Positions 5,143 to 31,691 of a stretch of 32,486 nucleotides of DNA are shown here, piece after piece. Origin of the DNA: Escherichia phage IMM-001. The position numbers and the translations under genes were made by a program. Under the pieces are notes generated by a model. It searched no databases. It saw nothing but the letters and a program-made list of their open reading frames with translations, and was not told where the DNA came from. Where the stretch lies: the sequence record MF630922.1, one strand, 5' to 3'. The first letter of the stretch is position 1; the number at the start of each line of letters is the position of its first letter.

Positions 5143-5667
5143 ATGAAAGACGAAAACTTCAGCAGCACAGCACAAGAAAAGGTTAGCTCTGGAAACTTTA
5201 AAGCCATGTACAACAAAAAGTATTCTGACATTACAACGCTAGCCAAGAACCGAATTATGACACCAGAGCAGCTATTTGACATTGCTGTGAAATACTTCTC
5301 TTGGGCAGAAGACCAGGCAATCAAGGCAATTGAAACCGCTAGCTTCCAGGGTGTTGTCACTGAAAACCTGGTGCACAAGCCTAGAGTATTCACGCTAACT
5401 GGATTCTGCCTTTACTGCGGCGTCACCCATAGCGCCATCGAAAAATGGAGGAAGTCTGCTGGTTATGACGAGGTAATTGCGTTCATTGATTCCGTTATTC
5501 GTGAGCAGAAATACCAGCTAGCAGCATCTGGCATTGTTAACCCAGGCATGATTTCCAAAGAACTTGGCATCGACAAGCCACAGGAGATTAACATCACCAG
5601 CACATCTTCAGCTAATGACGTCGACACAATGAAAGAAGCGCTGGAGTCGGTAATTAGTAAACTGTAA
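5143..5667 (+). CDS. putative terminase small subunit (174 aa)
   Basis: Position directly upstream of large terminase, size, RBS aaaggagg; no motif check possible. Confidence 0.5.
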   Translation: MKDENFSSTAQEKVSSGNFKAMYNKKYSDITTLAKNRIMTPEQLFDIAVKYFSWAEDQAIKAIETASFQGVVTENLVHKPRVFTLTGFCLYCGVTHSAIEKWRKSAGYDEVIAFIDSVIREQKYQLAASGIVNPGMISKELGIDKPQEINITSTSSANDVDTMKEALESVISKL

Positions 5668-5683
5668 GAATGGAGAGAGTAGA

Positions 5684-7252
5684 ATGTCTAATTTAGTTTG
5701 GGAGGAAATGACGTCAGCCGAAAAGATGGCGGTTAAGGCAATATCAACTCATAGCTTTGAGGGTTTTCTGAGGGTGTGGTTCCAACTGACACAGGGCGAG
5801 CGGTACATCCCAAACTGGCATCATAAATACCTTTGCAGGATAATTGACGAGATTATCGCTGGTGAGCGTAAGGACACCATCATTAACGTCGCTCCCGGTA
5901 GTGGAAAGACAGAAATTGCCTCAATCCACTTTCCAGCATACTCGATGGTTAAGCTGAAGAAGGTCAGGAACCTTAACATATCGTTTGCCGACTCACTGGT
6001 TAAGCGTAACTCCAAGCGAGTGCGTGACTTAATTAAGTCGGTTGAGTTCCAGGAGTTATTCCCATGCAAGTTTGGCACATGCAAGGATGATGAGCTACAG
6101 GTTCTGGATGAGTCTGGCAAAGTACGGTTTGAGTCAATCTCCAAGGCTGCTGGAGGCCAAATCACCGGCGCGAGGGGCGGCTATATAACCGATTCATATA
6201 GTGGCGCGGTTCTGTTAGATGATTTTGACAAACCAGCCGATATGCTTTCTGCCGTGTTCCGCGCAAACAATCACGTGATGCTAAAGAACACCATCCGCTC
6301 TCGTAGGGCTAGCTCAGTTAAAGGTAAAGCAACTCCGATTATCTCTATTCAGCAGCGACTTCACGTCAACGATAGCACGTGGTTCATGATGAATGGAGGT
6401 ATGGGTATCAGCTTCGATTTGATTAAGATACCAGCGCTAGTAACTGAAGATTACGTGGATACACTTCCTGACTGGATTAAGCAGCAATTCATTGATGACG
6501 TTCTATCAAGCGAATATATTGAGCGTGACGGCGTGAAATATTACAGCTACTTCCCAGAAAAGGAGTCGGTTAACGACCTGGTAGCAATGTGGGATTCAGA
6601 CAGCTATACATTCCTTAGCCAGTATCAGCAGGAGCCTGTAGCGCTTGGTGGTAATCTGATTAATGTAGAATGGCTCCAGCGCATTAGCGACACTCTGCGA
6701 CCGCCAGCTAAGTATGATTACAGATTCATGACTCTTGATACCGCCATGACAACAAAGTCATACAGCGACTTTAGTGTACTGCAACTTTGGGGTTATAAGG
6801 ATGGGAAGATTTACCTGCTTGACCAGCGACGAGGTAAGTTTGAAGCGCCGGAGCTAGAGGCTGAGTTATTGGATTTCGAGAAGATAGCAAGGGCATCCAA
6901 TCAGACAGATGGTATCCTTCGTAAAATCATCATCGAGAAGAAAGCCTCTGGCATCGGGCTGATTCAATCGGTAGGTAGGGTTATGCGGACACCAATCGAG
7001 CCATATGTGCCAGATAACGACAAGCTAACTCGCGTAATGAGTGCACTGCCTCAGATTAAGGCTGGTAACGTTATCCTGCCTGAGTCTGCAACATGGCTAA
7101 ACGGATTACTAACGGAGATTGCGGCATTCACGGCAGATGACTCGCATGTTCATGATGACCAGATTGACTGTTTAACTATGGCTGTCAACCTTGTTCTAAA
7201 CATTGCAGAGGATCCTAAATCAAGGATGATGAGATTAGCAGGAATCAAATAG
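5684..7252 (+). CDS. terL: terminase large subunit (522 aa)
   Basis: Walker A-like VAPGSGKTE near N-terminus, size and position before portal. Confidence 0.88.
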   Translation: MSNLVWEEMTSAEKMAVKAISTHSFEGFLRVWFQLTQGERYIPNWHHKYLCRIIDEIIAGERKDTIINVAPGSGKTEIASIHFPAYSMVKLKKVRNLNISFADSLVKRNSKRVRDLIKSVEFQELFPCKFGTCKDDELQVLDESGKVRFESISKAAGGQITGARGGYITDSYSGAVLLDDFDKPADMLSAVFRANNHVMLKNTIRSRRASSVKGKATPIISIQQRLHVNDSTWFMMNGGMGISFDLIKIPALVTEDYVDTLPDWIKQQFIDDVLSSEYIERDGVKYYSYFPEKESVNDLVAMWDSDSYTFLSQYQQEPVALGGNLINVEWLQRISDTLRPPAKYDYRFMTLDTAMTTKSYSDFSVLQLWGYKDGKIYLLDQRRGKFEAPELEAELLDFEKIARASNQTDGILRKIIIEKKASGIGLIQSVGRVMRTPIEPYVPDNDKLTRVMSALPQIKAGNVILPESATWLNGLLTEIAAFTADDSHVHDDQIDCLTMAVNLVLNIAEDPKSRMMRLAGIK

Positions 7253-7696: not shown

Positions 7697-7718
7697 CCAT
7701 AAAAGCTATGTTAAACTA

Positions 7719-7742
7719 AGCCCCTAACGGGGCTTTTTTATT
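7719..7742 (+). terminator. Rho-independent terminator
   Basis: agcccc-taac-ggggct then T7. Confidence 0.7.
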
Positions 7743-7753
7743 GGAGCAAGAAA

Positions 7754-15564: not shown

Positions 15565-15571
15565 AAATTAA

Positions 15572-15593
15572 CCCTCTTCGGAGGGTTTTTTAT
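15572..15593 (+). terminator. Rho-independent terminator
   Basis: ccctc-ttcg-gaggg then T6. Confidence 0.75.
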
Positions 15594-15594
15594 T

Positions 15595-15639
15595 GATAGC
15601 ACTTTTTGTTAAAGGCTATTGTGTTGATTGCTGTATAGT
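15595..15639 (+). promoter_or_regulatory. Conserved IR promoter-like cassette copy 5, variant (GATAGCAC-ttt-TTGTTAAA, 22 nt, TATAGT)
   Basis: Motif family; leader tcattcatcgaaacg. Confidence 0.5.
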
Positions 15640-19630: not shown

Positions 19631-19981
19631 ATGGCATTGCAAACATTCAATTGGTGCTTAAACGTACTCAATGGCGGCTCTTCATTTACCAATGCCAACA
19701 ATATTAGGGTTGTATCATTTGGTAATGGTTACCAACAGCGTGGCACTGGAGGATACAGGACGAACAAGAGGACGTATACTGTTAGCTACGTTGGCCGTGA
19801 GTGGGAGGCAGTAATGAACTTCTGCCTTGATCACATCGTAAAACCTTTCGCATGGACTACGCCACAGGGTGAGTTAAAGATGTTTGTTATTCAGCAGGAT
19901 AGCATTAGCGTCTCGCCGAGCACAAAAGAAGTTCAGACTGTTAGTATGCAATTTACTGAAGTTTTCACTTCAATGAGTTAA
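19631..19981 (+). CDS. minor tail protein, lambda M-like (116 aa)
   Basis: Position and size after tape measure. Confidence 0.55.
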   Translation: MALQTFNWCLNVLNGGSSFTNANNIRVVSFGNGYQQRGTGGYRTNKRTYTVSYVGREWEAVMNFCLDHIVKPFAWTTPQGELKMFVIQQDSISVSPSTKEVQTVSMQFTEVFTSMS

Positions 19982-19985
19982 ACTA

Positions 19986-20009
19986 AGGCCCATAAAGGGC
20001 CTTTTTTTA
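19986..20009 (+). terminator. Rho-independent terminator
   Basis: aggccc-ataaa-gggcct then T7. Confidence 0.7.
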
Positions 20010-20020
20010 TTGGAGAGAAT

Positions 20021-22162: not shown

Positions 22163-25100
22163 ATGGCGCAGGACATTAAAATATACGGCAGCAAGGGCGG
22201 TAGTTCTAAGCAGAAACAACCAGTAGAGCAGCCAGATAACTTGATATCTGTAAACAAGGTTAAGGTTTTGCTAGCTGTTTCTGATGGTGAAGTTGATAAC
22301 TCGTTCTCGCTTAAAGACCTGTATCTTGCTGACGTTCCGGTTCAGAACCAGAATGGCACATACAACTACGAGGGTGTGACAGCAGAATTTCGCCCTGGCA
22401 CGCAGAGTCAGGATTACATCGCCGGCCTCGAGGGTGCCAGCTCTGAGGTGCAGGTCAATAGGGAGATTACAAACTCAACGCCTTACATAATTGCCGTTAA
22501 CAACACTCAACTATCTGCGATTAGGGTTAAATTATACTGGCCTCGACTGATTAATCAGGAAAGTAACGGAGACCTGAACGGAACAACTTGCGAGTACGCT
22601 ATTGACTTATCTGTTGATGGCTCCACGTACAGTGAGTACACGCGAGGCGTAGCTAACGGCAAGACGACTAGCGGGTACGACAGGAGTATCAGGGTAAACC
22701 TTCCAGCTGAGTTTTCTAGCGCTCTTGTTAGGGTCCGTAAAATTACAGCAGACTCAGAAAGCTCTACTCTGGTTAACGGAATGCAAATTACGACCTATCA
22801 GGAAGTAATCGATGCTAAATTCCGTTATCCGCTTACAGCGCTGGTTTACGTTGAGTTTAGTTCGGACCTCTTCCCTAACGGAATCCCGGCCATCTCAATC
22901 AAAAAGAAGTGGAAGTTGATTCGCGTTCCGACTAACTATAACCCAGAGACAAGAACTTATAGCGGAACTTGGAACGGCACATTTAAGATGGCGTATTCAA
23001 ATAACCCAGCGTGGGTTCTTTACGACCTTGTAACTAACCAGCGATATGGGCTTGACCAACGCGAACTTGGTATCACAATTGATAAATGGGGGTTGTATGA
23101 AGCGGCGCAATTCTGTGACCAAATGGTACCAGACGGAAAGGGAGGTGTGGAGCCGCGTTACTTGTGTGATGTTGTAATTCAGCAAAAGGTTGAGGCATAC
23201 CAAGTCATCCGTGATATCTGTTCTATCTTCCGTGGGCTAACATTCTATGATGGTGAGCAGATAGGGATTGTTGTCGATAAGCCGCGCCAACCATCATACG
23301 TATTCACCAACGATAACGTTGTTGACGGGTTATTTAACAGGACTTTCGGAAGCGACAAATCGCTATACACAGTCGCTAACGTTCAGTTTGATGATGTTGA
23401 AAACTCATACCAGCAAGATGTAGAGCCAGTATTTGAGCTAGAGGCAACAAGGCGTTTTGGTTACAACCCGGTTGACCTTACCGCTATTGGCTGTACTCGC
23501 AGGAGTGAAGCAAACCGCCGTGGTCGTTGGTTGTTAAAGACAAACTTGCGCAGCGAGACGATAAGTTTCACCACAGGGCTAGAAGGTATGATCCCAATGA
23601 TTGGTGAGGTGATTGCGGTTAATGACCAGGCATGGTCTAGCAACTACACCTTAAACCTTTCTGGTCGTATCGAGTCTGTAAGTGGTTTGCAGGTTTTCGT
23701 GCCGTTTAAGATTGATGCTGCTGCCGGCGACAGGATTCTGATTAACAAGCCTGACGGAATGCCGGAATACAGGACTATTGCATCTGTATCTGAAGATGGA
23801 ATGACGCTGCAACTTAACACGGCGTTTAGCTTCAACCCTCAACCTGATACTGTATTTGCGATTGATAAGGAGAATCTTGCGCTTCAGCAATATGTTGTGA
23901 CCGGGATTCAAAAAGCAGACAGCGATGGAGATGATGCGTTCGGTTACAGTATTACAGCGGTTGAGTACGACCCGAACAAATACGACGAGATTGATTACGG
24001 CGTAAACATTCAGGACAGGCCAACGTCAATCGTTGAGCCAGATACATTACTGGCACCTGAGAATGTTCAGGTAAGCAGCTACAGTAAGGTTGTGCAGGGT
24101 ATTTCAGTTGAGACTATGGTCATCACCTGGGATAAGGTTCAGTACGCTAAGACATACACAGTTCAGTGGCGTAAGGAGAATGGAAACTGGATTAATGTAC
24201 CGCGCACTGCAAACACAGAAGTTGATATTGAAGGTATTTACGCAGGCATTTATCAGGTTCGTGTAAGGGCTGTTTCTGATACTGAAAACGTATCTGCGTG
24301 GTCTGAAATTGTTTCAGCTAGCCTTACAGGTAAGATTGGAACTCCTTCTGCACCTACAGTTATTACGGCTTCAGATGACGAGGTGTTTGGCATTATGGTT
24401 AAGTGGGGATTCCCTGACAACTCAACTGATACGTCATACACTGAATTGCAGCAAGTTGCCGACAATGGTGATGGCACTTACACGCCAGAGAACGCAAGCT
24501 TGCTAACATTAGTTCCTTACCCGAGCTACGAGTATTGGCACACTACGCTACCGGCAGGTAAGGTTATCTGGTACAGGGCGCGACTAATCGACAAGATTGG
24601 TAACGTCTCACCATGGACTGATTTTGTAATGGGCATGGCAAGCGATGACGTTTCGGCAATCATTGGTGAAATTAAGGTTGATATAGAGAACTCGGAGGGG
24701 TTCAAGTATCTTCAGCAGAATGCCATTGAGTCAAACGGAGCTATTCAGGCGCAAGCAGAATCAATCATCGAGAACACCCTGGCGAATGATGGTGACGTTC
24801 GTCGAATGACTAAGGAAAACAGCAAGAGGAAGGCTGAATTTATTCAGGCAGTCAATCTTATCGCTGATGAAGAAAGGGCTCGCGTAGAGGCCCTGACTCA
24901 GCTTAAGGCACAGATTGATGATGAGATTGTAGCTTCGTTAACAAGGATTGATACTGCGCTAGCTGAGGAAACTCAAGCAAGGACCACTGCGGACACTGCT
25001 TTATCCGCAAGGCTTGGCGAGAATGAAGCTGCATTAAATGAGAAGCTTGACACATACGTTACCGCTGATTCAATTGGCGCTCAGTATGGAATTAAGCTCG

Positions 25101-25549
25101 GTCTTACTTACAATGGAGTTCAGTACAGTTCTGGGATGAGCATGGAGCTAACAGGTTCTGATGGTAATGTTCGTAGCCAGGTCATCTTTGACGCTAACAG
25201 GTTCGCGATCAGTAATGGTGTTAGTTCCGGTTCCGGTCAGTGGTCATTGCCTTTCGTAGTTGAGAATAATCAGGTCTTCATTCAGAGCGCAGTAATTCAG
25301 GACGGTTCAATCACTAACGCGAAGATTGGTAACAGGATTCAATCTAACAACTACGTGGCTGGATCTCAAGGATGGGCGATTGACAAGGCAGGTAGCGCCG
25401 AGTTTAGTAACGCAACTGTAAGGGGGAATTTATACGCAAATAACGGTAACTTTGCATTTAACGGAACAAACAACACTGTACAGATTAACAACAACGGAAT
25501 TACAGTTAATTTACCGAATGGTGGCAGGGTTGTAGTTGGAGTGTGGTAA
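22163..25549 (+). CDS. central tail fibre / host specificity protein, lambda J-like (1128 aa)
   Basis: Size and position after I-like gene; long multi-domain protein. Confidence 0.8.
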   Translation: MAQDIKIYGSKGGSSKQKQPVEQPDNLISVNKVKVLLAVSDGEVDNSFSLKDLYLADVPVQNQNGTYNYEGVTAEFRPGTQSQDYIAGLEGASSEVQVNREITNSTPYIIAVNNTQLSAIRVKLYWPRLINQESNGDLNGTTCEYAIDLSVDGSTYSEYTRGVANGKTTSGYDRSIRVNLPAEFSSALVRVRKITADSESSTLVNGMQITTYQEVIDAKFRYPLTALVYVEFSSDLFPNGIPAISIKKKWKLIRVPTNYNPETRTYSGTWNGTFKMAYSNNPAWVLYDLVTNQRYGLDQRELGITIDKWGLYEAAQFCDQMVPDGKGGVEPRYLCDVVIQQKVEAYQVIRDICSIFRGLTFYDGEQIGIVVDKPRQPSYVFTNDNVVDGLFNRTFGSDKSLYTVANVQFDDVENSYQQDVEPVFELEATRRFGYNPVDLTAIGCTRRSEANRRGRWLLKTNLRSETISFTTGLEGMIPMIGEVIAVNDQAWSSNYTLNLSGRIESVSGLQVFVPFKIDAAAGDRILINKPDGMPEYRTIASVSEDGMTLQLNTAFSFNPQPDTVFAIDKENLALQQYVVTGIQKADSDGDDAFGYSITAVEYDPNKYDEIDYGVNIQDRPTSIVEPDTLLAPENVQVSSYSKVVQGISVETMVITWDKVQYAKTYTVQWRKENGNWINVPRTANTEVDIEGIYAGIYQVRVRAVSDTENVSAWSEIVSASLTGKIGTPSAPTVITASDDEVFGIMVKWGFPDNSTDTSYTELQQVADNGDGTYTPENASLLTLVPYPSYEYWHTTLPAGKVIWYRARLIDKIGNVSPWTDFVMGMASDDVSAIIGEIKVDIENSEGFKYLQQNAIESNGAIQAQAESIIENTLANDGDVRRMTKENSKRKAEFIQAVNLIADEERARVEALTQLKAQIDDEIVASLTRIDTALAEETQARTTADTALSARLGENEAALNEKLDTYVTADSIGAQYGIKLGLTYNGVQYSSGMSMELTGSDGNVRSQVIFDANRFAISNGVSSGSGQWSLPFVVENNQVFIQSAVIQDGSITNAKIGNRIQSNNYVAGSQGWAIDKAGSAEFSNATVRGNLYANNGNFAFNGTNNTVQINNNGITVNLPNGGRVVVGVW

Positions 25550-25553
25550 ATGA

Positions 25554-25579
25554 TTAGGCCCCTTTTGGGGCCTTTTCTT
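25554..25579. terminator. Bidirectional rho-independent terminator between convergent genes
   Basis: aggcccc-tttt-ggggcct with T-runs readable on both strands. Confidence 0.7.
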
Positions 25580-26542
25580 TTAGTAGAAGTTTGGGATAAA
25601 TGGCAGAGCCATTGATATGTTTGTGTCGAATGGGAACTGCGCCCCAGTCTGTGTTGAATAGTTCCCTATTACAGTTCCAGGTACAGCCATTACGGCGCCT
25701 CCAGACATACAGACACCCTTGTACCTTAAGTTGTTATACCCACCAGTAACCCTTGTTGTAGCTCCACACCTGAGTAGTGGAAAGAACCCCCCATTTATTG
25801 ACTGGAAACCATTGGTTATTTGTATAAAACCACTAAGAACGAAAGGTCTCCTGACGCTTGAGAAGACAATCTGACCAGAACTGTTAGACATTGTAAGGCC
25901 GTGGCCAGCTATTGGAGGCTCATTTCTGAATATCACTAATTGGACGTAAGTGCTTGCTGCCACGTCATCTATGCCGCCGTAATTTATATCGCGACACCAT
26001 ATTGTACTCCCGTCACTCTCGAGAGAGACGTTTGGGTTATCCCATTTACCAAACGGGATTCCGCTAACTGGAAGTGAAGCCGCGCCGTTAACCTGAATCC
26101 CACCAACCCATGCCGCCGACATTAACCTAGAATTGCTTGATATTGCCAAAAAGTCAGTTGAGTTCTCAACCAGTATGCCAGGGCTTGACGACGATGAAGC
26201 ATCAAGTATCTCAAAGCAATTACCAGCGAAGTCAATAATTCGACCTCTGGCACCATTAAAGTTACTAAGCGTTATCCTGCCAACTCCGTCATTTACCTTC
26301 TGAAACCCGTTAATATAATAAACTTCAGGTACAACATCATAGGCGTCAACGTGGACGGCCTTTGTTGGCAAGCAGAATGCGGTAGAGCCTGGTGACATGG
26401 TTAAACCAAAGTCCCATGATGATGCTGGCGTCGAAAGTCCATTAGTATTTATTGATCCAGTCACAGCAGGTGCTCTTAGTCCAGCGGTAATCTCCATCGC
26501 TGGCCTTCCGTCATTTAGGTCAATCAATATACCTTGCGGCAT
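25580..26542 (-). CDS. putative receptor-binding protein / tail fibre (320 aa)
   Basis: Minus-strand gene after J-like gene, TAATG-coupled to the upstream lipoprotein gene; ATG 26542 has AAGGAG 8 nt upstream (ORF-track GTG 26551 sits inside that RBS). Confidence 0.4.
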   Translation of the reverse strand: MPQGILIDLNDGRPAMEITAGLRAPAVTGSINTNGLSTPASSWDFGLTMSPGSTAFCLPTKAVHVDAYDVVPEVYYINGFQKVNDGVGRITLSNFNGARGRIIDFAGNCFEILDASSSSSPGILVENSTDFLAISSNSRLMSAAWVGGIQVNGAASLPVSGIPFGKWDNPNVSLESDGSTIWCRDINYGGIDDVAASTYVQLVIFRNEPPIAGHGLTMSNSSGQIVFSSVRRPFVLSGFIQITNGFQSINGGFFPLLRCGATTRVTGGYNNLRYKGVCMSGGAVMAVPGTVIGNYSTQTGAQFPFDTNISMALPFIPNFY

Positions 26543-26787
26543 TATTTCCACTCCTTAGATCCGTGGTCAGCAACTGAACCACCGTAACCGCCGCCAACCT
26601 TGCTCTCAATACCAGCGTAGCGCACATCAACTTCACCAGCCGGTACAACTACACCATTTTTCCATTTAGCAACGCACACGCCGTTTGCTTGCGTTGCACA
26701 CCAACCGTCAGGACGAGGAGCAGATGAACAACCTACCATCATGATTGCTGCTGCGGCGATGATTGAAAGTTTGATTAAGTTAGTCAT
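26542..26787 (-). CDS. small lipoprotein (81 aa), candidate superinfection-exclusion factor
   Basis: Signal peptide [20 protein letters not shown] with lipobox-like MVGC; RBS aagga. Confidence 0.65.
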
Positions 26788-26828
26788 TTACGTATTCCTT
26801 ATGAGGTTCGTTTCTTTTCGATGGAGTA

Positions 26829-26870
26829 ACTATATCTCATTCTTGAGATTTGTCTTTAGCTATTCGTGCT
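26829..26870 (-). promoter_or_regulatory. Conserved IR promoter-like cassette copy 8, variant (AGCACGAATAGCTAAAG, 22 nt, TATAGT), overlapping the MTase stop
   Basis: Motif family on minus strand upstream of the lipoprotein gene. Confidence 0.5.
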
Positions 26871-27578
26871 GTTTATTCTATTTTTTGCGACATTAAAATA
26901 CTCAGTATCTAGCTCTATACCTATAAATGACCTGTTTGTGTTTACGCATGCTACGCCAGTTGTTCCGCTACCCATGCAGTTATCAAGAACTAAGTCACCC
27001 TCGTCAGTGTATGTTTTTATTAGGTACTCCATCAAGGAAACCGGCTTTTGCGTTGGGTGTAGTGATGATTTCTGCTTGTCGCTAGCCATCTTTATCACAT
27101 CCCTTGGGTATCTCATTGTTGAATCATAAGATAGTGATTCGAAATTCTGATCTCCATAGTTTGTTCCATTGTCGTTCCTCTTTGTTGCTGTTTTTCTTTT
27201 GTGACCCTCTGTCATTTGCGGGTTGTATTTGTAAGGTTTTTTGTAGAAAACAAGTATGTTTTCATGAGCCTTCATCGGAGCTCTCTTGGCATTAAGGTGT
27301 CCGGTTGCATGTGTTTTTTCCCATATCCACTCATGCTTCAACATTTCAAGATTGGAGCACCCGAGTACTTTATCGAATGGTGTTTGCGCCGTAAGTACAA
27401 TTGCACCCTTGCACACCCTCCTGTATTGAGTCCATAGCAAGTCAAGGTCTATAACTGAATCCCACTTGTTTCTGGTTGTTCCGTATGGTAAGTCGCACAA
27501 AATCATGTCAATTGAATTGTCTGGGATTTCTTTCATAAGCTCAAGGCAGTCGCCATTCATTAATTTAATCATTTCCAT
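26856..27578 (-). CDS. orphan DNA methyltransferase, beta-class, DPPY motif (240 aa; may start at second ATG 27572)
   Basis: Motif IV ILCDLPYG near N-terminus and motif I VLDNCMGSGTTG near C-terminus; no adjacent restriction enzyme gene. Confidence 0.8.
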   Translation of the reverse strand: MEMIKLMNGDCLELMKEIPDNSIDMILCDLPYGTTRNKWDSVIDLDLLWTQYRRVCKGAIVLTAQTPFDKVLGCSNLEMLKHEWIWEKTHATGHLNAKRAPMKAHENILVFYKKPYKYNPQMTEGHKRKTATKRNDNGTNYGDQNFESLSYDSTMRYPRDVIKMASDKQKSSLHPTQKPVSLMEYLIKTYTDEGDLVLDNCMGSGTTGVACVNTNRSFIGIELDTEYFNVAKNRINSTNS

Positions 27579-27603
27579 CTCTCATTGCGTTTTTGTTGTG
27601 ATG

Positions 27604-27646
27604 ATTATACATAACCAAGCAAGGGTGTCTTTAGCTATTCGTGCTA
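27604..27646 (-). promoter_or_regulatory. Conserved IR promoter-like cassette copy 9, variant (TAGCACGAATAGCTAAAG, 22 nt, TATAAT)
   Basis: Motif family on minus strand upstream of the MTase gene. Confidence 0.55.
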
Positions 27647-27745
27647 CTGGTTACGCGTAACCGATGTAAATCGATGTATACCATATGCATCCGCTGGAAA
27701 TCGTATACGCATTGTTACGCCTAGTTACGCCATAGTTACATTAAA

Positions 27746-27806
27746 ATATCTATATATATCAACCTTTTACTCTTATTATTATTATTATATATATTACTGT
27801 GTATAT
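27746..27806 (+). repeat. AT-rich repeat, copy B, containing (TTA)5 microsatellite at 27773..27787
   Basis: Shares core with 229..297; lies in the 535-bp ORF-free region between divergent blocks. Confidence 0.8.
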
Positions 27807-28113
27807 CATGTAACCACTGTTCTGGAGTGTTCCGGCTATAATTTTTATATCATGTGATTTTATACAGTATTTCGCGGCACATATACCAATGCACCACCCG
27901 CTAAAATCGGTATACACGGTATACGCATTATTTACATTGAGCTATAGCGGCCCAGCCGGAGCAGTTAAGCGTAACTAATGCCAATGTCTACACGTAATTA
28001 CAAAATTATACGCGTATACTTGATTAATTAATCGGGGATACCAATTAGACGTGGTGACAAGCGTTCTGCATAATTATCACATCGAAAGCAAACAACCATA
28101 GAGAGATAGAGAA

Positions 28114-28311: not shown

Positions 28312-29283
28312 ATGACATTTACCGTATACACCAACGACGAACTAACAAACGAATCCTATCACGAAGAGCAGAGCCACATCTCTGGCTCTTCACTGGCTGA
28401 GATTCTCGCCACTTCACCAGCAAAATGGAAATTCAAGCAGCGCGATAACTCAAGCGCAGCACTTAAGTTTGGCACTCTAAGTCACTGCATGATGCTTGAG
28501 CGTGAGGCGTTCGATTCAACCTACATGCGAGCCACTGACTTTGATGAAGTTGAGGGGTTAATCACAAGCCAAACCGCGTTATCGGCAGCACTTAAGAAAG
28601 TTGGAGTTTCTGGTACGTCAGGAAAAGGCTATAACGAGCTAGTAGAGATGATGTACAAGTGCGGTGAGGATTGGCCTGTTAAGTGGCTAATTGAACAGCA
28701 GGAGAGCGCTGAGGCGTTAATTAGTGGCAAGGAGTTGGTTAGTGCGAAAGATTACGATAAGGTAATCGCAATGCGCGAGGTTCTGACCAATATCCCAGCT
28801 TACGATGCAGTTATTAATTCACCAACAGCGCAGAAAGAGCTATCAATCTTTGGTGAGATTCTTGGATGCGGCGTTAAGGTTAGACTTGACCATGTGGATG
28901 TTGTTGATGGCGCGGTTTACATTACTGACTACAAAACCACAGCAGACGCAAGTCCTCGAGGATTTGGTAAGTCGGCTTATGACCATGGATACCTTTGCAA
29001 GATGGCACTCCAGCGCGATTTGTTTGTTAAGGCGTTTAGCGAGAAGCGTAAGGTTGTAGTTCGTCTTCTGGCGCAGGAGAAGACAGAGCCTTATTTGCCA
29101 ATGTGCTACACGCTCACAGATGAGCAGCTTCACATTGGTCGCCTTCAATATATGGAAGCACTTGCCACGTACAAGCAGTGTAAGGAACTTGATGTTTGGC
29201 CTGGATACAGTAATGGGATTACAGAGCAAGATTTAATGATTCCTGAATGGGTAGCAAAACAATACGGAGAGATATTAAAATGA
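28312..29283 (+). CDS. PD-(D/E)xK family nuclease, RecB-like domain (323 aa); likely recombination exonuclease
   Basis: VRLDHVDVVD and YITDYKTT resemble nuclease motifs II and III (hhD / D-Y-K); sits upstream of Erf. Confidence 0.6.
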   Translation: MTFTVYTNDELTNESYHEEQSHISGSSLAEILATSPAKWKFKQRDNSSAALKFGTLSHCMMLEREAFDSTYMRATDFDEVEGLITSQTALSAALKKVGVSGTSGKGYNELVEMMYKCGEDWPVKWLIEQQESAEALISGKELVSAKDYDKVIAMREVLTNIPAYDAVINSPTAQKELSIFGEILGCGVKVRLDHVDVVDGAVYITDYKTTADASPRGFGKSAYDHGYLCKMALQRDLFVKAFSEKRKVVVRLLAQEKTEPYLPMCYTLTDEQLHIGRLQYMEALATYKQCKELDVWPGYSNGITEQDLMIPEWVAKQYGEILK

Positions 29284-29744
29284 ATAAAGATTGCTGGCAG
29301 ACACCATTAGAATTATTTAATCAACTAAATGATAAGTACAATTTCCAGGTTGACGCGTGCGCAAGTCAAGAGAATGCTTTGTGTGAGCATTTTTGGACCG
29401 AAGATGATGACTGTTTGCAGCAGGATTGGGGTGATGAAAATGATTTTGTTTGGTGCAACCCACCATACAGCAACCCATTGCCATTTGTCGAAAAGTGCCA
29501 GGAGTACGGTTACGCTGTTATGCTTTTAAATCAGGACACATCAACGAAATGGGCTAAGATAGTTTTTGAAAAATCCTCAAAGGTAATACTGTTATCAGAT
29601 AGGGTTAGGTTTATAAACCCATCGACGCTCGAGATTGGGAAGTCAAACCCAAAATGCCAGATGATTGTAGTGTTCGATAATAGTGTGGAGCATGGGCCTG
29701 TCATAAGGTGGTGCTCAATAAAAGATATTCACAAAAACATCTAA
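29280..29744 (+). CDS. Dam-like phage N6-adenine DNA methyltransferase (154 aa)
   Basis: N-terminal CWQTP and catalytic NPPY motifs; ATG 29280 overlaps upstream stop. Confidence 0.7.
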   Translation: MNKDCWQTPLELFNQLNDKYNFQVDACASQENALCEHFWTEDDDCLQQDWGDENDFVWCNPPYSNPLPFVEKCQEYGYAVMLLNQDTSTKWAKIVFEKSSKVILLSDRVRFINPSTLEIGKSNPKCQMIVVFDNSVEHGPVIRWCSIKDIHKNI

Positions 29745-30693: not shown

Positions 30694-31131
30694 ATGCACG
30701 TAATTACTGGTCAGATTCGCCGCGCTCCATTCACTAAAGAAGGTCAGAATGCTAATGGTACCTGGAAAATGTTTGCGGTTGATTTGAGTGAGCGATACAA
30801 AGATAAAGATGGTCAGACTCAGTATAGTAACTATCGCGCAGTCTTCTTCGCGAAAGAGTCAATTTTAGATTGGTATAATGAAGCATTTCAAGAAGGTAAA
30901 ATTGTTAGCGTTAGCGCTGAAAGTTTATCTGTAGATGTTCGAGATAAAGATGGCAAGACTTACGTAACAATCAATATGAATAATCCTCGACTTGAGTTTA
31001 GTCAGCGTGGAGATTCGCAACCACAACAAAATCAGAGACAGCAGCAGCAACAACAGCAGCAGAATAATCAGCAGAAGAGGCAACCACAACCACAACAACA
31101 GCAGCAGTTTGACGACTCCATTCCATTCTGA
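30694..31131 (+). CDS. ssb: single-stranded DNA-binding protein-like (145 aa) with poly-Gln linker and acidic tip
   Basis: C-terminal FDDSIPF resembles the SSB DDDIPF tail; preceded by a Gln-rich linker; N-terminal domain not canonical. Confidence 0.55.
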   Translation: MHVITGQIRRAPFTKEGQNANGTWKMFAVDLSERYKDKDGQTQYSNYRAVFFAKESILDWYNEAFQEGKIVSVSAESLSVDVRDKDGKTYVTINMNNPRLEFSQRGDSQPQQNQRQQQQQQQQNNQQKRQPQPQQQQQFDDSIPF

Positions 31132-31140
31132 TAAAAGATA

Positions 31141-31163
31141 AGGCCCCTTTCGGGGCCTTTTTA
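31141..31163. terminator. Bidirectional rho-independent terminator
   Basis: aggcccc-tttc-ggggcct then T5; convergent genes on both sides. Confidence 0.7.
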
Positions 31164-31691
31164 TGGCATGTTTACTCGAATTGAAACGAACGAGTCAGAA
31201 GGTATATCTATAGGGTCTCCGTTACTGAAGCCGTCAATTTTATTTCTCGCGAAAGACGGAGATGAATCGTGAGTGCGATGATAAGTTTTAACAACTATTG
31301 AACCATCAGCTTCAACCTCGTAATCTAGCCATATTCTAGGCTGCTTATTCAAGTCTACAGGTACCTCAAATCCACCGTTAACACCGCCCCAAGAAGTGTC
31401 AGAATTTAGGCCAAGCACACCTGATACCTTATAAACACCAGTAGAAACCCTCTCCACTGAAGCTCCTTCTGATTCCTCGTTTGTTTCAAAACTCCCATCT
31501 CGGAATACCTTAATTATAGGTGAGGCCACTTTGACGAAACCGCTAGGGTCCACTGTTGTGTTTAATCCGTGTAAAAGTTCCATTACCGCAAGTCCGCCAT
31601 TATAAGTTGAGTTAGCTATATAACAACGCCTTGCCCCATAAGATATGGCAAGCTGACCCCACTCGCGTGGAGTTGGGCCAGGCATATCCAT
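31161..31691 (-). CDS. tail-fibre-like protein, C-terminal part (176 aa from first ATG); frame stays open upstream to 31970 with no start codon
   Basis: Upstream in-frame translation ...NLQNKLQARSNLGLGTSATINHGDDAGQ... looks fibre-like; no ATG/GTG/TTG in 93 upstream codons. Confidence 0.4.
   Translation of the reverse strand: MDMPGPTPREWGQLAISYGARRCYIANSTYNGGLAVMELLHGLNTTVDPSGFVKVASPIIKVFRDGSFETNEESEGASVERVSTGVYKVSGVLGLNSDTSWGGVNGGFEVPVDLNKQPRIWLDYEVEADGSIVVKTYHRTHDSSPSFARNKIDGFSNGDPIDIPSDSFVSIRVNMP

Follow-up and report, generated by a model that had tools for sequence, protein, structure and literature searches.

A predicted LptD-type host-recognition and self-exclusion locus with an accessory methyltransferase in Escherichia phage IMM-001

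In the Drexlerviridae and other small siphoviruses, the alleles found just downstream of gpJ track the terminal receptor, the DUF6453-type allele going with LptD, the outer-membrane exporter of lipopolysaccharide (LPS) (BASEL study, PMC8594841). This work concerns such a locus at positions 25580-27650 of a stretch of 32,486 nucleotides (nt) from Escherichia phage IMM-001 (MF630922.1; the window, for short), where the genes of a receptor-binding protein (RBP), a small lipoprotein and a DNA methyltransferase (MTase) lie side by side. A 2026 preprint distinguishes four mutually unrelated RBP families (for FhuA, BtuB, LptD and YncD), each cohering at >30% identity, and three phages with RBPs homologous to that of the window provide the closest described systems. 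In coliphage Rtp, the genes rtp44-rtp45 (Dunbar et al. PNAS 2025, PMC12685063) encode an RBP and a lipoprotein on the strand opposite to J. The lipoprotein, Rtp45, has a Cys30-Cys38 disulfide pair in its structure (PMC12685063) and occupies a place between LptE and LptM on the periplasmic face of LptD (PDB 9RPS; PMC12685063), from where its hairpin runs up the LptD lumen and shifts the extracellular loop EL4 by as much as 20 Å, a shift that precludes binding of the RBP (PMC12685063). In vB_EcoS_OzMSK/MSK (OzMSK hereafter), genes 038-040 (PMC13035648) hold an MTase, a lipoprotein and an RBP downstream of J, and dependence on LptD was shown experimentally; this phage is unable to infect two lptD loop mutants (Table 2 of PMC13035648), and an engineered loop-11 deletion stops it (PMC13035648). 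The RBP of Oekolampad (Bas18), finally, was solved on open LptDE (PDB 9RPT/9RPW/9RQI) as a compact domain inserted in the LptD lumen.

Seen against these systems, the block is a familiar kind of host-recognition locus, one that has already been characterised in Rtp/T1-like coliphages. The window DNA is ~81-88% identical to that of Braunvirinae (i.e., Rtp-like Drexlerviridae) coliphages such as ES, TR2, CY1, OzMSK and CEB_EC3a, and its tail genes follow one another in T1-type order, after which come exonuclease VIII, Erf and a single-stranded DNA-binding protein. We are highly confident that the block serves a Braunvirinae coliphage for host recognition and self-exclusion, and that a single accessory gene has been inserted upstream of this module. 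The original prediction, made from the letters of this DNA, had drawn three genes on the minus strand here, and the listing of open reading frames (ORFs) returns all three where it had put them (lengths in amino acids, aa):

25580..26542, minus strand: RBP of the LptD type by homology, 320 aa, DUF6453; homologue of Rtp44, OzMSK gp38 and the Oekolampad RBP (PF20051, E=1.7e-135)
26542..26787, minus strand: predicted superinfection-exclusion outer-membrane lipoprotein of the Rtp45 type, 81 aa (PF24052, Phage_lipoprotein, E=3.4e-40)
26856..27578, minus strand: orphan beta-class DNA methyltransferase, probably N6-adenine, 240 aa (PF01555, E=6.8e-31; PADLOC MTase_II)

By the ORF listing and strand reading, the three are co-oriented and lie downstream of, and convergent with, a J-like gene. 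The order of the lipoprotein and RBP genes opposite J is that of Rtp, in which stop and start codons also overlap and a single promoter cassette lies upstream; Rtp differs in a strongly diverged RBP and in the lack of an MTase gene. OzMSK has the identical arrangement of MTase, lipoprotein and RBP genes downstream of J, with two cassettes; its lipoprotein is 86.4% identical to that of the window, whereas its MTase allele is only 62.8% identical and the DNA of the region ~81% overall. The MTase-lipoprotein-DUF6453-J order recurs in OzMSK and in one metagenomic contig. Oekolampad, whose RBP is a full-length DUF6453 homologue, belongs to another genus (Dhillonvirus) and has diverged in sequence.

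By close homology, the 320-aa protein is an RBP of the LptD type. It scores 451 bits with PF20051, against a cut-off of 25, and its search against the PDB gives a single hit, chain C of 9RPT/9RPW/9RQI (the Oekolampad RBP), in which residues 2-320 align to residues 2-321 at E=8.5e-65 and 43.6% identity over 314 positions. Identity reaches 95.3% with the RBP of phage ES and 93.4% with OzMSK gp38 (320/320 positions), and falls to 40.6% with Rtp44 (310 positions); the family is a common one, with 405 phage records, and NCBIfam has no family for it. The mechanical ORF list would make the protein 323 aa long, from a GTG at 26551, but every homologue begins MPQGI or MAQGI, and for this reason we prefer the ATG giving 320 aa, which has the Shine-Dalgarno sequence AAGGAG 8 nt upstream and overlaps the stop codon of the lipoprotein gene as TAATG. 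The receptor predicted by this homology is LptD, not FhuA. An RBP downstream of J, as originally predicted, is thus borne out by homology to proteins characterised experimentally and structurally; the label ‘fibre-like’ that went with it is not, as the solved homologue in 9RPT is a compact domain.

The lipoprotein is even closer to its described counterpart. It scores 136 bits with PF24052 (cut-off 27), of which it covers residues 1-80 of 80, matches chain D of PDB 9RPS (i.e., Rtp45) at E=1e-38 and is 88.2% identical to it, with Cys20, Cys30 and Cys38 all kept. The clear lipobox that had been claimed for it is confirmed, with a signal peptide followed by M-V-G-C20 and a Ser, not an Asp, at +2; residues 1-22, lipobox and Ser included, are identical to those of Rtp45. 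Under the Lol sorting rule, Ser at +2 predicts retention in the outer membrane, and the lipoprotein is therefore predicted to stay there. Cys30 and Cys38, which form the disulfide pair in Rtp45, are conserved at the same positions, and the only notable change is a 5-residue Gly-rich insertion near the C-terminus. NCBIfam has no family for this protein either. The lipoprotein should then act like Rtp45, blocking LptD against further phages, and the earlier idea of a receptor-masking lipoprotein beside the RBP gains from its closeness to a protein solved on LptDE(M) with the same cysteines.

When positions 25580-26787 are compared with 1343-2508 of the Rtp locus, the lipoprotein is 88% identical and the neighbouring RBP only 40.6%. 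The two genes evolve at very different rates, which agrees with a target surface that is conserved on the periplasmic side and with extracellular loops that vary.

The J-like gene and the RBP gene end against each other on opposite strands, at 25549 and 25580, with a gap of 30 nt that holds only a shared terminator:

22163..25549, plus strand: J-like central tail-tip protein, 1128 aa (Pfam FNIII-A_GpJ, Phage-tail_3 and Phage_Tail_Tip; PHROG 31, ‘central tail fiber J’)
25556..25573, both strands: bidirectional intrinsic terminator GGCCCC-TTTT-GGGGCC from a terminator scan, T-runs flanking a GC-rich hairpin

Folding of the terminator gives -21.8 kcal/mol on the plus and -16.3 kcal/mol on the minus strand (z-scores -3.3 and -3.8), and in SU57 and CEB_EC3a a terminator is annotated at the same position. 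The J-like protein is the presumed docking partner of the RBP. Its last ~37 aa (25436-25546) are aligned, among the tblastn matches listed, only in phages with a DUF6453-type RBP locus, where that locus was inspected, and the extreme C-terminus of J may be the adaptor on which the RBP docks.

In the same tblastn search, made with the C-terminal 261 aa of J, most phages align only to about residue 213-224. TR2 (with an inspected DUF6453 RBP locus), vB_EcoS-26020III and three other listed phages align to the very end, and DUF6453 matches are seen in relatives of vB_EcoS-26020III. Similar GC-rich hairpin terminators of the GGCCCC/GGGGCC type lie at 7713-7743, 15565-15595, 19980-20010, 25544-25576 and 31129-31166 of the window, the copy between J and the RBP gene being 88% identical to that at 31129-31161.

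These parts can be assembled into a single course of events. As terminal receptor-binding protein, the RBP would be held at the tip of the J-like protein by non-covalent contacts. If it behaves as the Oekolampad RBP does on LptDE, it would insert into the extracellular face of the open-state LPS translocon LptDE, a step that would commit the phage to injecting its DNA. The 81-aa protein made in the infected cell would be exported, receive a lipid at Cys20 and remain in the inner leaflet of the outer membrane, where, Rtp45-like, it would bind periplasmic LptD between LptE and LptM and push EL4 outward. With EL4 displaced, LptD could no longer accept the RBP; superinfecting LptD-dependent phages would be excluded, and the progeny would be spared loss on infected cells and debris. 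The MTase, for its part, would most likely methylate adenines in the replicating phage DNA and so protect it from host restriction systems that recognize the same site.

The class of the MTase is well marked in its sequence. It scores 108 bits with PF01555 against a cut-off of 26.7, and has motif IV (D29-L-P-Y32) towards the N-terminus and motif I (D199-N-C-M-G-S-G-T-T-G, with G203-S-G-T-T-G208) towards the C-terminus; as motif IV comes before motif I, the arrangement is that of the beta class. This order (IV, target-recognition region, I), the D-x-P-Y motif and the GSGTT loop for S-adenosylmethionine (SAM) are shared with the N6-adenine MTases of PF01555 (M.BceJIV, CcrM, M.MboIIA, DpnA-type, YhdJ), although similarity to the characterised enzymes is low, with E from 1e-16 to 1e-19. 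D29, P31, Y32, G203, S204 and G205 do not vary among 18 aligned family members. The catalytic motif is DLPY, not the classic DPPY, and is invariant as such in the subfamily; from established knowledge of these motifs, D-x-P-Y suggests methylation of N6-adenine over N4-cytosine. The protein more likely has 238 aa, from the second ATG at 27572, because of a GAGAG 6 nt upstream of that codon and the match to the N-termini of homologues. Its solved relatives (DpnA-type, CcrM, M.BceJIV, which recognizes GTWWAC, and M.MboIIA) are distant, its scores with NCBIfam equivalog models (77-82 bits) are all below their cut-offs (292-830), and PADLOC offers only generic methyltransferase models. The exact sequence is absent from the assembly collection searched; the best metagenomic relative, 86% identical, stands in the same MTase-lipoprotein-DUF6453-J arrangement. 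The enzyme had been called an orphan, and this holds together with the motif order. Its neighbours are the lipoprotein gene and 535 bp of non-coding DNA, and by ORF list, Pfam and PHROGs the flanking ORFs contain no nuclease family other than the recombination exonuclease VIII, 730 bp off and on the other strand.

We infer from the sequence that the MTase has an anti-restriction role, and of the rival explanations it is the one directed at this role that survives best, unlikely as it seems to us. According to it, the MTase would be epigenetic or regulatory in the manner of CcrM or M.BceJIV, or the remnant of a restriction-modification system, or a passenger without benefit on the usual host. 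Both of these regulatory orphans do count among its closest solved relatives, the best PADLOC hit is a model named ‘Type II methyltransferase’, most of the close phage relatives (ES, Rtp, SU57) do without the gene and the phage has a Dam-like methyltransferase as well. Against it, the catalytic and SAM-binding residues that the family keeps invariant are all intact, the gene has a strong predicted sigma-70-like promoter of its own (10/12 matches), and no nuclease gene lies near. The family, moreover, is very large and widespread in unrelated phages (1535 phage records and >8000 database proteins, in virulent and temperate phages of many hosts), which fits a portable protective function.

The second orphan methyltransferase, of the T1-Dam type (PF05869, TIGR01712), is encoded at 29247-29744 on the plus strand, with a likely start at 29280 whose ATG overlaps the stop codon of exonuclease VIII as ATGA. 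In OzMSK this position has nothing but an ORF of 150 nt, and the gene therefore looks like variable cargo.

A repeated cassette with a short inverted repeat (IR), which the original prediction had placed before each gene of the block, proves to be a real feature of the window. The pattern TAGC-N7-GCTAAAG has 8 matches at <=1 mismatch, compared with 0.68 +/- 0.78 in shuffled sequences (0/100 shuffles reach 8), and a ninth, looser copy stands at 1226. It does precede the MTase and lipoprotein genes; the RBP gene lacks a copy, its translation being coupled to that of the lipoprotein gene.

1226, 2277, 3591, 7250, 15597 and 29746, plus strand, and 26871, 27646 and 32429, minus strand: cassette copies of the whole window
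26829..26874, minus strand: predicted promoter cassette of the lipoprotein and RBP genes; IR CAGCACGAATAGCTAAAG (26871-26854) and AAGACA-16 nt-TATAGT (26856-26829), 9/12 matches to consensus
27604..27646, minus strand: predicted promoter cassette of the MTase gene; IR TAGCACGAATAGCTAAAG (27646-27629) and AAGACA-16 nt-TATAAT (27631-27604), 10/12 matches to consensus

Aligned to each other, the cassettes share AATAGCAC-N5-TGCTAAAGAC, followed ~16 nt downstream by a TATAAT-like hexamer with invariant A2 and T6 and then by a conserved leader. A 15-bp inverted repeat, TAGCA-N5-TGCTA, is conserved, and the -35 hexamer itself poorly so. We predict the cassette to be a sigma-70-like promoter module because of this conserved architecture of nine copies and not because of the promoter scan, as promoter-like sites in the region do not exceed the shuffled expectation (10 vs 8.0 +/- 2.5). 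With the centre of the repeat ~42 nt upstream of the inferred start, a distance typical for activators overlapping the -35, the sequence suggests an activator-dependent class of promoters. The copy before the lipoprotein gene overlaps the stop codon of the MTase gene, whose TAA lies inside GCTAAAG. Under this prediction the lipoprotein and RBP genes would form one operon, with a common cassette promoter, the TAATG overlap and an end at the terminator shared with J. As no terminator lies between the MTase and lipoprotein genes, read-through could also put all three genes on one transcript, with its end at 25556-25573.

The short inverted repeat TAGC-N7-GCTA and the position of the cassette at the 3′ ends of upstream genes could equally bring to mind an element acting in the RNA (i.e., a terminator or a processing hairpin) instead of a promoter, a reading we consider very improbable. 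Folding of the cassette RNA is no better than that of shuffled sequence (-3.0 and -1.3 kcal/mol, z=+1.0 and -0.1), for which the hairpin or terminator was rejected; no T-run follows the repeat, and the genuine terminators in the window are GC-rich hairpins distinct from it. Each copy also points the same way as its downstream gene, with the TATAAT-like hexamer at a fixed distance and its A and T positions invariant, as befits a promoter module. A literature search for a prior account of the cassette or promoter in Drexlerviridae, with the original T1 and Rtp genome papers outside its reach, brought nothing relevant.

Elsewhere in the window, the TAG of the repeat is the stop codon of the terminase large-subunit gene (5684-7252), and the TAA of the Dam-like gene abuts another copy.

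The place taken by the MTase upstream of the lipoprotein gene is a slot of variable content, as seen when the window is compared with nine related loci (Rtp, ES, SU57, OzMSK, the metagenomic contig L006, CEB_EC3a, UALMA_PCEc3, TR2 and CY1):

Rtp, ES and SU57: slot empty, one cassette
window, OzMSK and metagenomic contig L006: methyltransferase, two cassettes
CEB_EC3a: DNA-binding/anti-repressor-like gene, two cassettes
UALMA_PCEc3: 86-aa ORF, two cassettes
TR2 and CY1: KilA/DNA-binding gene and 86-aa ORF, three cassettes

In the nine relatives checked, n accessory genes in the slot thus go with exactly n+1 cassettes. The stop codon of each intact slot gene falls inside the next cassette, one of them using the opening TAG of the repeat. 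Unrelated slot proteins (the MTase, the KilA/DNA-binding protein and the product of the 86-aa ORF) share a cassette-encoded C-terminus, ...S-T/I-N-S/C, because some slot genes stop at the TAA of GCTAAAG. The sites where cassette and gene end meet are 26851-26874 and 27625-27646 in the window and 1575-1592, 1892-1909 and 2701-2718 in the related locus L004, with others in L007, L008 and L010. The KilA gene is intact in CY1 (227 aa); in TR2 its annotation is split between a DNA-binding part of 145 aa and a KilA-N fragment of 45 aa, the latter stopping short of any cassette.

Since the content of the slot varies beside a horizontally mobile RBP locus, the MTase appears as one of several interchangeable accessory genes. 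The block had been described as a ‘host-range and anti-restriction island’, and what remains of that description is an MTase in a hypervariable slot next to a horizontally exchanged RBP locus; this supports the idea in part, without demonstrating that methylation and host range are functionally connected. It is tempting, if rather doubtful, to go further and see in the cassette the junction of a modular array of single genes, whose 15-bp inverted repeat, besides being the site of some activator, would offer short homology for swapping accessory genes between phages, MTase alleles with differing recognition regions among them. When the MTases of the window and OzMSK are compared, their ends are 70-87% identical and the central ~90 residues (presumably the target-recognition region) 27-53%, a mosaic pattern compatible with different target specificities.

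The resemblance to phages T5 and T1 put forward in the original prediction holds for the functional logic of the module. T5 (pb5 and Llp) and T1 (gp31/gp32 and Cor) likewise combine a dedicated RBP with an adjacent small lipoprotein of the outer membrane, and the latter renders the receptor refractory. Their modules, however, target FhuA, whereas the one in the window is predicted to use LptD, and the lipoproteins differ in mechanism, Llp working on FhuA through long-range allostery and Rtp45 displacing LptD EL4 sterically from the periplasmic side. One could still take the locus for a module of the FhuA type (or BtuB/YncD type) homologous to that of T1 or T5, the lipoprotein being a Cor/Llp homologue that masks a TonB-dependent transporter; the outline is alike, with an RBP locus downstream of J and a small lipoprotein, and a single GenBank record names the lipoprotein ‘Cor superinfection exclusion protein’. 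We give this almost no credence. The T1 locus differs in genes and strands (plus-strand gp32 and gp31 with minus-strand cor), the RBP has no similarity to T1 gp31 (E=1), and a BLASTP alignment of the lipoprotein with T1 Cor covers only residues 6-25, that is, signal peptide and lipobox, with 11/20 residues matching. Homology to the T1 module was rejected on these grounds. Pfam, besides, assigns PF24052 and PF20051 and no Cor family, and of the four unrelated receptor-specific RBP families it is that of LptD into which the window RBP falls. The proteins of the window are thus functional analogues, not homologues, of the T5 and T1 pairs, the alignments in question being those with T1 Cor and gp31, and not a direct one with T5 Llp.

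Several points weigh against the reading of the block as an LptD-directed recognition and exclusion module with an anti-restriction MTase. For this phage, homology is the source of everything said on receptor use, exclusion, location in the virion and methylation; the RBP family is strongly diverged (witness Rtp44), and the relative Bas01 couples the use of LptD with that of a second receptor, NupG, by way of a domain of J. No relative has a specificity that could be transferred to the MTase, the best of those in the phage database being only 67% identical, and the allele in the same slot of OzMSK (5452-6144 of the OzMSK locus) differs in the central region. With a Dam-like MTase in the same phage, the orphan MTase may also be redundant or otherwise employed. 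To this come the names given to the RBP itself, as PHROGs and several GenBank records label it ‘membrane protein’ or ‘moron’. Taken literally, the PHROG 1265 label (‘membrane protein; moron, auxiliary metabolic gene and host takeover’) and the ‘membrane protein’ of the GenBank records would turn the 320-aa protein from a virion RBP into a host-membrane or ‘moron’ protein made in the infected cell, for which we see hardly any chance, as these labels were assigned automatically and rest on no experiment, the homologue in mEp021 is annotated as ‘virion structural protein’, and the allele at this locus tracks receptor specificity in Drexlerviridae and other small siphoviruses.

With the 320-aa protein read as a virion RBP for LptD, the pair that it forms with the lipoprotein holds no new biology, family, receptor, complex structures and exclusion mechanism having been published in 2021-2025, and the three-gene arrangement is already annotated in OzMSK. 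As far as the searches went, the cassette-bounded accessory slot with its MTase and the diverged central region of the MTase allele were not found described. The value of the comparison is rather a predictive one, in that LptD can be assigned as terminal receptor from sequence alone; the phage should be blocked by the published loop-11 deletion of LptD, and should exclude other LptD-dependent phages by means of its Rtp45-like lipoprotein. Both are of use in choosing phages for cocktails and in building phage-resistant production strains.

Upstream of the MTase gene lies the divergent intergenic region of 535 bp (27579-28113), AT-rich, with many GTATAC, GCGTAAC and GTTACGCGTAAC motifs and a (TAT)n-(TA)n tract. 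Of this region, 35 nt (27737-27771) are 94% identical to positions 220-254 of the window, and the adjoining (TAT)n tract is repeated in 220-324 too. Kept in relatives at 77-87%, the region could be an origin or a regulatory region.

Some of the records of related phages contain errors. In that of phage ES (OR466728.1), exonuclease VIII is named ‘capsid maturation protease’ and Erf ‘head morphogenesis protein’, and the 5′ end of the lipoprotein gene is overextended by 16 codons. Among the records with this locus, one is filed under Pseudomonas phages and several under Campylobacter phages.

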